Origin: an uncultured virus (IMG/VR IMGVR_UViG_2822120212_000001)
Lineage: Duplodnaviria; Heunggongvirae; Uroviricota; Caudoviricetes
Strand: one strand, 5' to 3'
IMG/VR virus record: IMGVR_UViG_2822120212_000001
Coordinates: 45,704-65,703 of that record
DNA: 20,000 bases
Positions within the stretch are counted from its first letter, which is position 1, and each line of letters begins with the position of its first letter. This document shows positions 8,200 through 16,066 of this stretch, piece by piece. The position numbers and the translations under genes are program-made. The notes beneath the pieces were generated by a model. The model worked only from the letters and a program-made list of their open reading frames with translations. It made no database searches and was not told the DNA's origin.

Positions 8200-9366
8200 A
8201 TGGGAATCATCAAAGAATGGCTTCATAAACAAAGTTTAAAGAATCAACTTATAGAGGTATTTGGAAAAGCGGGTTTATATGTGGACCATCAAACTAGGGG
8301 TGGGAAAGTCCCAATTTACCCGAAGATACATGATATATCCTCTTCGAAAGAAAAGGTTCGATATATATTCACCATTCCGAACGGTTTGGATCCAAAGACT
8401 ATTGAAAAGAAATGGTTTTGCTTTCAACAAATATTAGGGAGGAATGTAGCGATTGAAGGTGATATTAAAAAGTTTGTGCTCAATGTGTTTCATTCAGATG
8501 CAGGACTACAAACATACAATTACAGTTATAAGAAATGGCAGCCATTATTAAAACGGCATCGTCTTCCTGTTGTGGTAGGTCGGGACCAATTTGGGAACAT
8601 GATTGTGTATGACATGGTTGAAGCAAATACACCACATTTACTCATTGCAGGTGAAACAGGGAGTGGTAAAAGTAGTATGGTACGTGTTGTTCTTTCCACA
8701 CTCATTCAATATATGTCTCCTGAAAAGTTGCATTTATACCTGGGTGACTTAAAAAACTCTGAATTTCATTTCTTGAGAAGAGTCAAACATGTAAAAGAGG
8801 TTTGCATGGAAGAAATCGAAATGAAAATCATGCTTCAGAAAGTGTGGAAGGAAATACGCGAACGTAGAAAGTTGATGGAAGAGTATGAAGTGGATCACAT
8901 TGATGAATACAACAAATTGAATCCTGGTAATCAGAAACCATATCTCTTACTTGCTATTGATGAAGTAGCGATGCTTCAAGATGAAAAGGAATGTATGTCC
9001 ACAATTGAAAAGATATCGGCAGTCGGTAGGGCGCTCGGTGTCTTCCTCATGCTTAGTATGCAACGTCCTGACGCAAAAGTATTAGATGGTAAGTTAAAAT
9101 TGAATATGACCGTAAGAATGGGCTTTAAATGTGCCGATACAATCAATAGCAACATCGTGGGTACACCTGGATCAGAACACTTGGAGCAATCGGGCCAAAT
9201 GATTTTAAAATTAAATGGTTTAAAGAAAGTTCAAGCTCCATTTTTAGAATTAAGCAAAGCGAAACAAATTGTAGGACCTTATCGTATTCCGAAAGAGGAT
9301 ATAACGCTTCAGAATCCTCCACAAAAAGAAAATAAATTGTTTGGGGTGTTAGATTATGAACAGTAG
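8200..9366 (+). CDS. FtsK/SpoIIIE-family ATPase
   Basis: PHLLIAGETGSGKS Walker A, DLK, LLLAIDEVA Walker B, GRALGV, QRPD motifs. Confidence 0.93.
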   Translation: MGIIKEWLHKQSLKNQLIEVFGKAGLYVDHQTRGGKVPIYPKIHDISSSKEKVRYIFTIPNGLDPKTIEKKWFCFQQILGRNVAIEGDIKKFVLNVFHSDAGLQTYNYSYKKWQPLLKRHRLPVVVGRDQFGNMIVYDMVEANTPHLLIAGETGSGKSSMVRVVLSTLIQYMSPEKLHLYLGDLKNSEFHFLRRVKHVKEVCMEEIEMKIMLQKVWKEIRERRKLMEEYEVDHIDEYNKLNPGNQKPYLLLAIDEVAMLQDEKECMSTIEKISAVGRALGVFLMLSMQRPDAKVLDGKLKLNMTVRMGFKCADTINSNIVGTPGSEHLEQSGQMILKLNGLKKVQAPFLELSKAKQIVGPYRIPKEDITLQNPPQKENKLFGVLDYEQ

Positions 9367-9964
9367 AGACAAAGTGATACTAGGCGATTTGAAACGTTTC
9401 AGATGTATGTCGCGCGATGATATTATAGATTTGCATTTTCATGGAGTAAAAAACGCAGTTACTTGCTGTAATACTGTTATGAAACGATTGAGAAGAGACG
9501 GCCATGTGGATGCCAATATCACACAGCAGCCATTTGTATATTTTCCTCAACCTAGCACACTTCGAAAAACTAGCCAAAAGATTCCACACTTCCTCGGTAT
9601 TGTGGATATATATAAACAGCTTATCCATTATGAAAAACCTAAACTATTTAAAGTAGAACCAAAATACGGAAAGGATTATATGGAACCTGATGCATTTACA
9701 ATATGGCGCAGATCTCCATTCTTCATCGAAGTCCAGAAGTCGGTTTACAGTAAAAAAGTTATGCAGGATAAAATCAACAGGTATGAATTATATTTTCGCA
9801 GTCAGGAATGGCATAACGAGTCATGGCAGCCAAAAGGTTCTAAATTTTTCCCGTCAATCCTCATTATTACTGATAAGCAGTATGATATTAGTTCTTCTAA
9901 CTTACGAGTCTTTCAAGCTTCTTCAATTAGCAATTTCATAGATAGTATTGCTGTTAAAGCATAA
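9356..9964 (+). CDS. Replication-relaxation (Replic_Relax) family protein
   Basis: N-terminal wHTH, IPHFLGI, EPDAF, FFIEVQ PD-(D/E)xK-like core, KINRY; overlaps FtsK gene. Confidence 0.8.
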   Translation: MNSRDKVILGDLKRFRCMSRDDIIDLHFHGVKNAVTCCNTVMKRLRRDGHVDANITQQPFVYFPQPSTLRKTSQKIPHFLGIVDIYKQLIHYEKPKLFKVEPKYGKDYMEPDAFTIWRRSPFFIEVQKSVYSKKVMQDKINRYELYFRSQEWHNESWQPKGSKFFPSILIITDKQYDISSSNLRVFQASSISNFIDSIAVKA

Positions 9965-12156: not shown

Positions 12157-12531
12157 TTAAATCTCTGTTAATAGCTTGAATTTCCTTTTCTGTTCAGGTG
12201 TTAGCTCATTTTCTACATAGCGATCTATAAGTAAATCGATGATCTCATAAGCAAATTTTGTGTTTGTAAGTTTCATTAATACTTCTAGTTCTTCTTTTGA
12301 TTGATTAGAAATTTTAATGCTACCTTGTTGATTTTTAAATTTCTTTTTTGATTCAATTTTTTCGTTTCTTTTTTCTTTTCGAGTTACTTGTTTTTCTTCA
12401 GTCTTAGGTTGAGAAGGCGTAGCTGGAACCTCGTTATTTTCCACTACAGCTTGTCCTTGCTCTGGTACATAAGGCTCAGTAGGTTCAAAGTTACTTTTCT
12501 TTCTACCTAACAAACCAGGAGTTCTCGCCAT
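12157..12531 (-). CDS. Type Ib partition centromere-binding adaptor (ParB/ParG-like)
   Basis: Directly downstream of parA; likely ATG 12531 (MARTPGLLGRKK); disordered N-terminus and ribbon-helix-helix-like C-terminus. Confidence 0.7.
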   Translation of the reverse strand: MARTPGLLGRKKSNFEPTEPYVPEQGQAVVENNEVPATPSQPKTEEKQVTRKEKRNEKIESKKKFKNQQGSIKISNQSKEELEVLMKLTNTKFAYEIIDLLIDRYVENELTPEQKRKFKLLTEI

Positions 12532-12532
12532 T

Positions 12533-13354
12533 TTACACACCAACCTTCATTTTTTCAAACATATCAATACGAGATAGCAATTCATCACTAATCGTTTCGT
12601 ATAGTTCAATTACATTCATATCATGTCTATCTTTTTCAGTAATACCATTCACATCAAATCGTTTAATACGTTCCATTTGAGGGACGATGTTTTTAAATAG
12701 GTTTTCTTCACCGAAAATTTCACGAGCATTTTCCATGATATATTCGTCAACCTTACCGTTGTTTTTTAATAGGACAGGAAGAACACCAACTACTTCAATA
12801 TCAAGATCATATTGCTCTTTTAGCTTAATAAGTTCATTAACATAATTCTCAGCACCAGTTAGAGAACGCTCTTGAGTTTGCAAAGCAATTAGAACATAAT
12901 CAGAAGCTACAACGGCGTTCTTTGTAACTTCTAGTGACATTGGAGGAACATCGATAAATATGTAGTCGTATTTATGCTTTATCTTTTCAAGTAATCCTTT
13001 AAAGTAATGATCTTCTTCAGCTTCCGAAGAACAATTTTTATAAAGGAATTTTGCGAAATCTTGAAAATCAACGTAAGAAGGAAGTAAATGTAAGTTCTCC
13101 ATAATTTCCACTTCTAAGCCGTCTAGGTTCCCCTCTTGTATTCCCTTCATTAATGTTTTTTCTACTGTAACAATTTCATCAGGGTTAAGAATGGATTTTG
13201 TTAACATTAAAGACTTTGTTGCGTTACTTTGTGGATCAAGGTCAACAAGTAATGTACGCTTGCCCTTTTTAGCAAATTCATAAGAGTTCAATACAGCATT
13301 TGTGGTTTTACCGACTCCACCTTTGTAATTACCTACCGTAATTGTAATAGCCAT
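12533..13354 (-). CDS. parA: ParA/Soj-family partition ATPase (no N-terminal HTH, type Ib)
   Basis: NYKGGVGKTT deviant Walker A, LVDLDPQSNAT, YIFIDVPP; RBS GGAG before ATG 13354. Confidence 0.95.
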   Translation of the reverse strand: MAITITVGNYKGGVGKTTNAVLNSYEFAKKGKRTLLVDLDPQSNATKSLMLTKSILNPDEIVTVEKTLMKGIQEGNLDGLEVEIMENLHLLPSYVDFQDFAKFLYKNCSSEAEEDHYFKGLLEKIKHKYDYIFIDVPPMSLEVTKNAVVASDYVLIALQTQERSLTGAENYVNELIKLKEQYDLDIEVVGVLPVLLKNNGKVDEYIMENAREIFGEENLFKNIVPQMERIKRFDVNGITEKDRHDMNVIELYETISDELLSRIDMFEKMKVGV

Positions 13355-13382
13355 TTTTAACACTCCAGTTATATTATTTAAA

Positions 13383-13473
13383 ATTTCCCTATATCCCTTT
13401 ATAGAAATAGGGAAAAATAGAAATAGGGAAATAGGGATATTTCTAACTATAGAAATAGGGATATTTCTATATC
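13383..13473. repeat. parS/operator-like cluster I of AAATAGGG / ATAGAAAT motifs
   Basis: ATAGAAATAGGGAAAAATAGAAATAGGGAAATAGGGATATTTC... upstream of parA. Confidence 0.8.
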
Positions 13474-13640
13474 TTTAAAGAAATTATAACAATGATATTT
13501 GGGTTATGCAATAGAATCATAGAGTTAGTAATTAATAACAAAAACGTTGGTATCAAAAGATTATTTTGATGTATGAAGTAGAGAGAGTTAAGAAACAAAT
13601 ATGTAATTTCGTAGAGATGTTAGTAGAGGCAAAAATAATT

Positions 13641-13724
13641 AAAATAGGGAAATATAGATATAGGGAAAAGGGGAAATATCCCTATATCTATAAGTGGAAA
13701 TAGGGAAATAGGGAAATAGGGATA
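13641..13724. repeat. parS/operator-like cluster II of AAATAGGG motifs
   Basis: AAATAGGGAAATATAGATATAGGGAAAAGGGGAAATATCCCTATATC...GGAAATAGGGAAATAGGGAAATAGGGATAT (8-bp period). Confidence 0.8.
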
Positions 13725-13751
13725 TTATTCAAAAAGTGCGTAAATTCGCTG

Positions 13752-13780
13752 TTTACAAAGGATAAAGCTTGTTGTAACGT
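13752..13780 (+). promoter_or_regulatory. sigmaA-type promoter firing into the ORF-free region
   Basis: TTTACA-N17-TAACGT. Confidence 0.5.
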
Positions 13781-13888
13781 AGTACACAACAAGCACCATT
13801 CTACAAAACAAAACATAATTTGATATTTTACATAAACGAAGATCATGAAGATCGATAGAGCAAAATCAAAACAATTGAATATGAACAG

Positions 13889-14064
13889 AAAACAAAAAGC
13901 CACTCCATTTGCTATCGGCTACCAACCTTTAGCGGAGTGACTCAGTTCTAGTAATTGCTACCAACACTTACTAGAATGAACTGTATTAACCCACAGTGTT
14001 TACGTTTAAGTAGTGTACCATCACTTTCTTAAACAACTATGCCTTTTCACGAGGCTTCTTTGAT
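13889..14064 (-). ncRNA. Putative antisense copy-control RNA (~175 nt, three UGGUA-loop hairpins)
   Basis: Own promoter at 14071-14099; three hairpins; last one followed by TTTTTGTTTT on the minus strand; a stem mismatch on plus is a G-U pair on minus. Confidence 0.65.
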
Positions 14065-14070
14065 ATACCC

Positions 14071-14099
14071 ATTTTATCTATTGTTTGGATAAATATCAA
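14071..14099 (-). promoter_or_regulatory. sigmaA promoter of the antisense RNA
   Basis: Minus strand TTGATA-N17-TAAAAT. Confidence 0.7.
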
Positions 14100-14148
14100 C
14101 TAGTAAATACTAGTTTTGATTATTTTGTAGTCCAAAAGATATATAACG

Positions 14149-14219
14149 GGCATCTCTAAGCCTAGAAGTCTTGTGATGTACAGGCCATTTAGGGAATTAG
14201 AGATGCCTTTTTGTTTTTT
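14149..14219 (+). terminator. Long hairpin with U-tract, possible attenuator
   Basis: GGCATCTCTAA (14149-14159) / TTAGAGATGCC (14197-14207) then TTTTTGTTTTTT. Confidence 0.55.
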
Positions 14220-14224
14220 GTTCG

Positions 14225-14850
14225 CGTGGAATTGCCTGAAACCACGTAAATAAAACTGATAAGCCGTGATTCCGTGCTTCTATATAGAGGGAACGTGTTA
14301 CGGCGTGGCTAGCTGTTGGTCGTGCAGGGGGTACAGAGTATACGCCTACAAAAACAGCACCCCTCATTGGAATCCTGTTCTTCTGGTGAGGGTGGGCGAG
14401 AACTTGCCCAGGGACGATTCTCTAAAAGGTTCGGGTGGTTATCGTTAGCATTACGGTGCTAGGGAGTACATTCAGTTTGTCGTGTAGGGACGATATTACA
14501 AGGACAAGCCATAGTAAAAGGATGTATGCGGTGAAAATCGCTGAGTGAACAGGGTCTATACATACGGATACCTTATAAGTGACCGCATGGCGAAAACAAA
14601 GACGCTTATCCATCTATTTTGACTGATTACTTTTTTTGTAGTCTTTCAAAGTAGGGGATAAATCTGCCTTCCAGCCGTATTCCATAATCGTTCCCACATG
14701 ATAAAAACCCTCAAGACCTTCAGTCAAGCGTAACTGTGAAGAAAGGATGAAAAACATGAGTTTGTTTAACTTTTGGGGGAATGACTTACTAAGATAGAGG
14801 AATAAATAAGGGATTTACTATTTACTTGGTTAAAGGATAAGGGGACGGAT
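14225..14850 (+). ncRNA. Putative large structured non-coding RNA / replication-origin region
   Basis: GC-rich island with no RBS-backed ORF; nested long-range pairings, UACG and GAAA tetraloop hairpins, G-U pairs favouring the plus strand. Confidence 0.55.
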
Positions 14851-15124
14851 GATTAAAATATTTCCTATTGCAGAATTTGGTTTTACATATCGGATATAGT
14901 ACGTGAAATTAAACTTATATAATTTTAGTTTGATTGGTATATGGTGATATTCTAGCAGTTGATGAAAAAGCACGTTGAGAAGTGATGAAGTAAACAGAAA
15001 AAATATTGTTAGAAGATGTAGTGGTTAACCTCAGTAAACAAAAATTAACTTTTATTGTATATTTTGAAAATAGATATTAATTAAGGTAATCTTAATTTAA
15101 ACTAATAAGGGGAGGGATATCATT

Positions 15125-16066
15125 GTGAAAGTATTTAAATTAACTACAGAAAGTCATGCTCTTTTAGATTTGAATGAACAGAGCTGGGAAACTACTATTG
15201 CTTATTATGAGAAGGAAACTCATAAGAGAGCGCCCTATTATTGTGATCTAAAAAAGAAAACCAGATATTTTGCTGTTTGTCCTGGTTGTAATAATCCGGT
15301 TCAATTAGTAAATTTGTATGTTAATAAGAAATTACCAGGCAACGAAAAGAAGCAATCCCCACATGCTAAACATCAACCGCATTCAGTTATTGGAATAGCA
15401 ACCTATTATCAAGAAAAGTACGATACCTGTGAATTGAGACAGAGAACACCCTTCAGTGATACTGAGAAAAGAGCTGGAACGGAAGTACCAAATGAAATAT
15501 TGCAGCTCATACAACGATATCCAGACATTTTATATAAACATATACGAAAAATAATAGGTATCAATTTTTCTAGACGCGTATTTGAGCGCATGATTGATAA
15601 TTTTCTTCGTGCAAATGGACATTGTTATAAGCGTATTAATAAATTTAATTTGCCGTATGCTTTTCTATATATGCAAAAAAGTACAAGAATTATTAATCAA
15701 CATATTACAGAAGGTCATGCTTATCAAAAAGAAATAATTGATTGTATACAAAATAGTAAATATTTTACTGTATCTGATAATAAAATTACACCTATTAACC
15801 CGAAGGTTGATGGATTTGTAGAAATTGATTTTTACTTAACAAAACATAAAATAACACCAATTAAAAATATGATTACTCTCTGTATTACTGAATCTAAGGG
15901 AGGGGAAGTTGATAGTTTATTAGAAAAGGAATTTCCAGTAAATGAATCTGATTATATAAATGATATCAACGAGGCGATGGACAATGGGGATAATGAAATG
16001 GATAGTAATAAAGCTAGATCTCAATTGAGAGAGATGGTACTCAATTGCATTGAAAAAAATAAGTGA
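15125..16066 (+). CDS. Hypothetical protein with N-terminal CxxC...H...C metal-binding motif
   Basis: RBS AAGGGGAGGG, GTG start; FAVCPGCNNPVQL, PHAKH, TCEL; low GC. Confidence 0.8.
   Translation: MKVFKLTTESHALLDLNEQSWETTIAYYEKETHKRAPYYCDLKKKTRYFAVCPGCNNPVQLVNLYVNKKLPGNEKKQSPHAKHQPHSVIGIATYYQEKYDTCELRQRTPFSDTEKRAGTEVPNEILQLIQRYPDILYKHIRKIIGINFSRRVFERMIDNFLRANGHCYKRINKFNLPYAFLYMQKSTRIINQHITEGHAYQKEIIDCIQNSKYFTVSDNKITPINPKVDGFVEIDFYLTKHKITPIKNMITLCITESKGGEVDSLLEKEFPVNESDYINDINEAMDNGDNEMDSNKARSQLREMVLNCIEKNK

Follow-up and report, generated by a model that had tools for sequence, protein, structure and literature searches.

Locus and gene content

The 20,000-nt stretch of DNA analysed here (the window) is the final 20 kb of the 65,703-nt IMG/VR virus record IMGVR_UViG_2822120212_000001, to which CheckV assigns a completeness of 100. 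Our subject is a module at window positions 13,740-14,990, which is likely to be the plasmid-state replicon of a circular siphophage without an integrase and, to judge from covariance models, a divergent member of the oripLS20 group (class E theta replication) that would need no plasmid initiator protein.

The record describes a complete temperate siphophage, with genes for terminase, portal, capsid and tail proteins and for lysis, and it also encodes the arbitrium protein AimR, an antirepressor, Sak and RecU. It is labelled linear; its first and last 20 nt (1-20 and 65684-65703) are identical, a hallmark of circular assemblies, and the molecule is probably a circle of 65,683 bp. A six-frame search of the record found no tyrosine integrase, and there is no resolvase or recombinase among those of its open reading frames (ORFs) that were scanned. 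The circular signature, a ParA protein and the lack of a tyrosine integrase together fit a phage-plasmid.

The module lies in a gap between parA (12533-13363, minus strand) and an ORF at 15125-16066 (plus strand). The gap contains only ORFs of 43-71 amino acids (aa), and none of the seven scanned has a Pfam match. The parA product is a genuine partition ATPase (AAA_31, E 3e-39; CbiA, E 1e-15; PHROG 164, ParA-like, E 3.5e-64) whose gene diverges from the RNA module. The stretch free of ORFs beside parA, as described in an original prediction made from the letters of this DNA, is real. Downstream of parA is a gene for a small protein (12157-12543, minus strand; PHROG 8975, E 9e-80; DUF5388 at E 5e-4, below the cut-off) that its position makes a candidate centromere-binding partner. 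Two clusters of parS-like repeats, built of AAATAGGG units with an 8-nt period, sit between the start of parA and the RNA module and are putative centromeres. Both came from a repeat search; cluster 1 (13381-13476) has direct and inverted copies (families D1 and D2, inverted pairs I1-I25), and cluster 2 lies at 13642-13736.

Base composition sets the module apart, the G+C content being 0.48-0.49 at 14150-14599 versus 0.26-0.35 in the flanks. The AT-rich DNA expected after the structured region is present as a spacer ahead of the next gene (14740-15120, G+C 0.27-0.29), a candidate zone for DNA opening or the start of synthesis. This spacer is conserved with plasmid pALH1 up to 14918 but not with small plasmids.

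A covarying RNA on the plus strand

What is conserved at this locus is an RNA structure. The fold begins with hairpin P1 (14225-14259, plus strand), in which a CGTGG/CCACG stem closes a loop containing UGCC and is followed by a conserved AAAACUGA; the stem, which joins alignment positions 142-146 to 160-164, covaries among CG, GC and AU pairs. Then come a 44-nt insertion (14262-14305) that alignment gaps show to be lineage-specific and absent from most small plasmids, and a core of 13 helices and 90 pairs (14312-14669), defined on a 16-sequence alignment of 14306-14670. An AGTCAAG motif about 55 nt past the fold (14722-14728) is common to the small plasmids, pBGN_3 and pLS20.

Several measures indicate that the pairing is not fortuitous. 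Standard pairs fill 98.6% of the 1416 alignment cells, against 39-49% when the partners are slid by 1-3 columns. Two-sided changes occur in 35 of the 90 pairs, against 14.4 ± 2.2 after shuffling (none of 500 shuffles reached 35) and 2-10 after sliding. RNAalifold, applied to 18 sequences, gave 87 pairs, and compensatory changes affect 39 of these. The strand is equally clear: the plus strand has a consensus energy of -79.6 kcal/mol and the minus strand one of -31.8, and the plus-strand structure includes 231 G-U cells, with 247 cells non-standard if read on the minus strand. The structure is thus under selection on the plus strand. Many of its unpaired positions are invariant.

The nested structure foreseen in the original prediction therefore exists, but at about 360-450 nt and not the 600 nt or so that had been proposed. 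The purine- and G-rich 3' end attributed to it was not confirmed: the G-rich stretch in question (14770-14850) is beyond the part conserved with the small plasmids. A search of Rfam gave no match at the gathering score, and relaxing E to 10 produced only chance-level snoRNA, miRNA and LhrC-like matches, so that this is not a described family at that threshold; nor was a tRNA or tmRNA found.

The control region

Upstream of the fold, the minus strand carries a convergent promoter, TTGATA-17-TAAAAT, at 14099-14071, which scored 10 of 12 in a promoter scan. Its -35 and -10 boxes are kept in all 13 aligned relatives (-35 TTGAAA or TTGATA, -10 TAnAAT in a 480-nt upstream alignment), and counterparts are present in pLS20 and pBFR_1. 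The scan found nine promoter-like sites in the region, not above the 8.1 ± 2.8 expected by chance, so it is conservation that makes the case for this promoter. An intrinsic terminator for the same strand lies at 13888-13941 (stem 13899-13941, U run 13888-13898). All 13 sequences have it, its stem carrying compensatory changes, and the scan detected its counterpart in pLS20.

Promoter and terminator together predict an antisense RNA of about 175 nt (13888-14064, minus strand) complementary to the 5' leader of the sense RNA. From 14064 to about 13890 it forms five hairpins and folds better than shuffled sequences (z -3.46), and compensatory changes affect 14 of the 25 consensus pairs in a 13-sequence alignment of the antisense strand. 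Three of the hairpins are found in the small plasmids and two are extra in the window lineage. Two loops contain UUGG within GUUGGUAGC, which we take to fit the YUNR loop motif of antisense RNAs. Both the convergent promoter and the hairpins of the original prediction are thus upheld, and a conserved convergent promoter with its terminator fits antisense control.

Between the antisense target and the folded RNA is a terminator-like hairpin followed by a T run (14148-14222, plus strand; hairpin 14149-14207, T run to 14222), a candidate attenuator. It was read from the sequence and forms in the minimum free energy (MFE) fold; every relative has a hairpin and T run here, with compensatory changes, and pLS20 has an equivalent. 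The consensus scan missed it because its loop exceeds the size limit of the scan. An attenuator-like stem had been anticipated at this place, and this hairpin answers to it.

Where does the sense RNA start? The promoter first suggested, TTTACA-17-TAACGT at 13752-13780 (plus strand), fails the scan criteria and is conserved in the large-plasmid lineage only; the sole, weak hint in its favour is a soil metatranscriptome contig that ends at 13788, and as the sense promoter it is not confirmed. In the small plasmids a plus-strand promoter, TTGATT or TTGCTT-17/18-TAAAAT, aligns with about 13840-13866, some 25 nt upstream of the antisense terminator, and the plus-strand promoter of pBFR_1 was detected by the scan.

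Two further features were seen in this part of the window. A 10-bp hairpin with a T-rich tail (13767-13794, minus strand) is terminator-like, overlaps the candidate sense promoter and is confined to the large-plasmid lineage; it may terminate an extended antisense RNA or serve as an operator. A direct repeat, GAAGATC twice at 13843-13856 (13850-13858 region), lies where the small plasmids have the spacer of their sense promoter and may be a regulator site.

Transcription

RNA evidence comes from assembled contigs of four libraries and carries no information on strand or transcript ends. Contigs from three of the four cover the module: a soil metatranscriptome contig spans 13788-14910, a tick metatranscriptome contig of 321 nt covers 14354-14675 only, and in an isolate transcriptome the module contig has a depth of 616 versus 107 for the parA contig. 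The fourth library covered the parA side only, and none reached beyond 14913, which is not evidence of absence.

Relationship to oripLS20

The pLS20 origin was reportedly found by Meijer et al. in 1995 to need no plasmid protein. As described in PMC8557374 (2021), oripLS20 is a segment of about 1.1 kb (bp 64,501-65,745 of pLS20cat) without a typical replication gene that is sufficient for autonomous replication; it may use DnaA, and its one consensus DnaA box and three near-boxes are offered as suggestive, not defining. The same source states that very little is known of how the origin fires, and reports 35 hits for the module, which it describes as confined to Bacillus. In a DNA polymerase I (Pol I) mutant pLS20 replicons do become established, and chloramphenicol does not affect them; class E theta replication was termed 'not yet characterized' in 2022 (PMC9743546).

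We built two covariance models, R1 from 16 sequences of the window family and R2 from seven sequences of the pLS20 family only, with the pLS20 origin region taken from NC_015148. R2 recognises a segment of the window core, 14437-14558 on the plus strand, with 26.3 bits (E 1.1e-8 in 87 kb), no background match exceeding 8.6 bits. It also matches the homologous place in all seven small replicons tested (16-25.3 bits) and in pBGN_3 (26.2 bits). In the reverse direction, the best R1 match falls at the homologous place, on the plus strand, in seven of seven pLS20-family origins (11-21 bits). The pLS20-family fold has 126 pairs, 32 of them compensatory (seven sequences), and its elements and motifs follow the order of the window family. 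BLAST finds no similarity between the window module and pLS20.

The shared plan extends to the whole module. Each is an ORF-free segment of about 1.1-1.25 kb that diverges from a partition operon, the pLS20 origin adjoining the gene for Alp7A and the window module that for ParA. Each has a convergent antisense promoter (TTGACG-17-TAAAAT on the minus strand of pLS20) and terminator, and a strong hairpin with a U run ahead of the fold. Within the fold the order of elements is the same: a hairpin with a UGCC loop and then AAAACUGA (in pLS20 the equivalent of P1 is CACCC-loop-GGGTG and then TAAAATAAACTGA), a UUCCU loop and then GGCGAGrAC, a UACGG loop, AGGACAAGC, a hairpin with a GNRA-like loop (GUGAAAA or GCGAAAG), a long terminal hairpin with a U-rich loop, and AGTCAAG. 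The differences are the extra hairpins in the leader of the window module, its 44-nt insertion and its lack of a consensus DnaA box.

From the reciprocal covariance-model matches and the common order of elements, the module is a homologue, though a distant one, of oripLS20, and the comparison with a Rep-less origin of the pLS20 type that the original prediction drew was well chosen. By this homology the module probably serves as a replicon.

Small carriers without a recognisable rep gene

Small plasmids bear on the same question. The module occupies the largest non-coding gap of seven small plasmid records (6.9-16 kb), of pCI-14 and of a 4,555-bp circle. None of these small carriers is annotated with a replication gene or given a replicon type by MOB-suite, and Pfam found no Rep family among 77 ORFs of at least 70 aa from eight of the small replicons. 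When ORFs of at least 50 aa from the phage record (G000) and ten small replicons were clustered, no protein family was common to all 11. Resolvase came closest, being present in all ten small replicons but not in the phage record; every other family occurred in seven or fewer. The module is thus the sole feature common to the phage record and the small plasmids that lack a recognisable rep gene. Replic_Relax was absent from all five records searched whole, pALH1 among them, in a search that does find it in the phage record.

In print, a 2013 survey gives the minireplicons of pALH1, pE33L54 and pLVP1401 as 'NA, no reported' (PMC4219350), and pCI-14 is presented by its authors as having no similarity to anything known (PMC2901330).

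Distribution of the RNA family

A blastn search with the 1.57-kb region matched 174 plasmid records, 32 of them with at least 80% coverage at about 88-92% identity; the latter include pALH1 (52,166 bp, Bacillus cereus G9241; module identity 92.5% over 1.54 kb), pE33L54 and pLVP1401. A 621-nt core was matched in 101 plasmid records, at 93-97% identity in large plasmids; small plasmids of B. cereus, B. mycoides, B. toyonensis, Peribacillus and Planococcus share its right-hand 400 nt (69-81% identity). In the phage collection the core occurs in one unverified partial record only.

A scan of genome contigs with a degenerate pattern gave nine true homologues among 14 loci, the other five (L017, L018, L021, L023 and L029) being chance matches to the pattern. 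A contig of Paenibacillus gallinarum that carries the module is 4,632 nt long with a 77-nt terminal overlap, and so represents the 4,555-bp circle mentioned above. Of 47 IMG/VR loci found by pattern, 40 are true members, each with at least 183 bits to R1, and seven have no R1 match. Among species-representative genomes from the family of one carrier, 40 of 105 have a match at E <= 0.001. The carriers of the window family are phage-plasmids and cryptic plasmids of 4.5-16 kb (B. cereus group, Peribacillus, Planococcus and Paenibacillus); the pLS20 family resides on conjugative plasmids in the B. subtilis group.

A third branch of the RNA family was seen in chromosomal islands (L091:4511-6159, L090:4718-6311 and L092:3409-5001), in which the order is tRNA, tyrosine integrase, folded RNA and a 270-aa protein with a weak HTH_36 match. 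The island copies score 32-41 bits with R1, and R2 gives 78.3 bits for L091; Rfam finds only tRNA on the chromosomal relatives. A 5.28-Mb contig (L093:4890-6984) has a strong copy (180.8 bits) and a weak one (29.6 bits) on the same strand, 1.7 kb apart.

The 7,243-bp plasmid pBGN_3 (L089:6000-7243) is of mixed character. Over the leader and antisense region it shares 80% identity with pBFR_1, and its core is strongly divergent, with 8.1 bits to R1 against 26.2 to R2 and one hairpin like that of pLS20. pBGN_3 bridges the window and pLS20 families. A similar leader joined to a divergent core suggests that control region and effector RNA are exchanged as modules.

Weighing the replicon interpretation

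A number of observations tell against reading the module as a protein-independent, antisense-controlled replicon. First, the phage has proteins of its own that might do the work: the record encodes a replisome organiser (Phage_rep_org_N) with a DnaC/IstB-like loader, and an FtsK/SpoIIIE protein with a Replic_Relax protein (PHROG 'replication initiation protein'). The designation 'Rep-less' is therefore right for the module and wrong for the element as a whole. In two small plasmids, moreover, the module adjoins a gene for an HTH_36 protein with a sub-threshold DnaD_N match. Strong copies of the module also occur on chromosome-sized contigs, so carriage alone is no proof of activity.

Second, the control circuit has gaps. 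Where the small plasmids place the sense promoter, the window retains CAAAAT alone and lacks a good -35, and in the window lineage the sense promoter thus appears to be weak or without a convincing candidate. The 14148-14222 terminator hairpin forms in the MFE fold without the antisense RNA, and neither that fold nor a search by eye revealed a trustworthy conserved anti-terminator. The RNA contigs could stem from DNA carry-over.

Third, the link to pLS20 is a distant one. R1 scores 16.9 bits on pLS20, and since one unrelated match reaches 16.1 bits the R1 evidence alone is marginal; nhmmer with a window-family profile found nothing in pLS20 at E up to 10. Unlike pLS20, the region 13364-15124 has no perfect DnaA box TTATCCACA. 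The pLS20 box TGTGGATAA has no conserved counterpart in the window family, and near-boxes with at most two mismatches are not enriched in the whole window (101 versus 86.8 ± 9 expected).

Other explanations have to be set beside these points. The original prediction took the long RNA for a primer of the ColE1 kind, which would persist as a hybrid on the DNA, be cut by RNase H and be extended by Pol I, with the antisense RNA blocking it through kissing loops. ColE1 and pMB1 (class B theta) do resemble the module in having no initiator protein of their own and in combining a long structured sense RNA with a short antisense RNA of several hairpins that is directed at its 5' end, and the window also has G-rich stretches with AT-rich DNA downstream. 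There is, however, no sequence or Rfam relation to the ColE1 RNAs, and the host is Gram-positive. In the window a conserved terminator separates the antisense target from the fold. ColE1 has no such terminator, and the arrangement is one typical of attenuation systems. That so many unpaired nucleotides are invariant suggests that the RNA is more than a primer. Finally, a Pol I mutant supports the homologous pLS20 replicon (PMC9743546), which argues against ColE1 enzymology. We now regard a true ColE1-style replicon as unlikely.

A somewhat poorer prospect is that phage proteins, either Replic_Relax with FtsK or the replisome organiser with the DnaC-like loader, replicate the element, and that the RNA module serves incompatibility, partition control, regulation or anti-defence. 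The candidate genes are in the phage record, 346 plasmid records (205 Bacillus, 123 Priestia) carry relatives of the FtsK and Replic_Relax pair (window 8200-9964), and MOB-suite assigns rep clusters to pALH1 and pN451-2.3. Yet pALH1 has no Replic_Relax, and the small plasmids that bear the module have none of these proteins. The Replic_Relax pairs are found on megaplasmids of 250-400 kb as well, and the replisome organiser module belongs to the early lytic region, together with Sak and RecU. The homologous pLS20 region is by itself a replicon (PMC8557374).

That the region instead encodes one or more small proteins, such as that of a 63-aa ORF at 14422-14613 (minus strand), is very improbable and this reading was rejected: blastp links ORFs at this place in five of 11 replicons, but the ORF is missing from the other six, contains one-nucleotide indels and has substitutions that are pairwise-compensatory and specific to the plus strand, and neither a conserved ORF nor a Pfam match (0 of 7 gap ORFs) supports it.

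Neighbouring genes

The gene that follows the module, a 313-aa ORF at 15125-16066, has its own ribosome-binding site and a CxxC motif, and has no match in Pfam, PHROGs or PADLOC. The gene in this position varies among relatives, encoding an MmcB-family protein in pALH1 and GIY-YIG or HTH_36 proteins in small plasmids. The FtsK portion of the pair at 8200-9964 also matches the PADLOC models SspH and mad8. In the phage record, outside the window, are two candidate defence loci: a gene (L009:4982-6691) for an OLD-family ATPase-TOPRIM protein that is AriA/GajA-like (E 2e-27), and a pair (L009:10998-13713) consisting of a helicase (PADLOC Helicase, E 3e-98) and a DUF2290 protein (E 1e-16).

A model for the module and its relation to known systems

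Returning to the module as an oripLS20-type replicon, we infer autonomous replication, a logic of copy control and a mode of action of the RNA along the following lines. A plus-strand transcript would start upstream of 13,890, and its leader would be fully complementary to the antisense RNA of about 175 nt made from the 14099-14071 promoter. It would have to pass the terminator-like hairpin at 14148-14222 before folding into the conserved RNA at 14225-14669. The level of antisense RNA would track copy number, and its hairpin loops would pair with the leader; such pairing would favour termination at 14148-14222, or misfolding downstream, and less folded RNA would result. The folded RNA would then act in cis at or just past its 3' end, near AGTCAAG and the AT-rich DNA, by opening the DNA, by priming or by recruiting the host primosome. 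Segregation of the copies would fall to ParA, its partner protein and the flanking repeats.

In pT181 and in pIP501/pAMbeta1, a countertranscript drives attenuation ahead of the rep ORF. The order in the window is that of pT181 and the inc18 plasmids, namely sense leader, convergent antisense gene and an intrinsic terminator just downstream, but there the attenuator guards a rep ORF and in the window it guards a non-coding folded RNA. An alternative, pre-emptor pairing like that of pT181 and inc18 was not identified in the MFE fold of the window. Another comparison is with pHT1030, a B. cereus-group plasmid whose ori1030 is said to be a minimal replicon, about 1 kb long, that lacks a Rep ORF and has copy-up mutants in the origin. 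In the literature searched it appears only in citations and as a vector component. pHT1030 may belong to the same family, in which case replicon function would have been known in the B. cereus group since 1992.

A bolder version of the model is possible, though we hold it only tentatively and with some doubt. Here the folded RNA of about 450 nt would be the initiator itself, standing in for Rep by means of conserved tertiary contacts (for example, by template invasion or primosome recruitment). It would define one ancient, protein-free replicon superfamily that comprises phage-plasmids, cryptic plasmids, the conjugative pLS20 family and tRNA-integrated islands across the Bacillales, all of them under antisense control at a terminator placed before a non-coding effector.

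Implications

The kind of replicon, class E theta as in pLS20, was known already. Within the literature searched, two things appear to be new: that what is conserved is an RNA which covaries and has an antisense partner, and that a divergent B. cereus-group branch on phage-plasmids and small plasmids joins the oripLS20 superfamily. In that literature, which did not extend to subscription papers, we found no description of an RNA mechanism for an oripLS20-type origin. A covarying fold with an antisense partner turns the question of how oripLS20 fires into one of helices, loops and promoters that can be tested. It also gives a likely replicon to phage-plasmids that are common in the B. cereus group, several of which are listed in print without a known one (PMC4219350).

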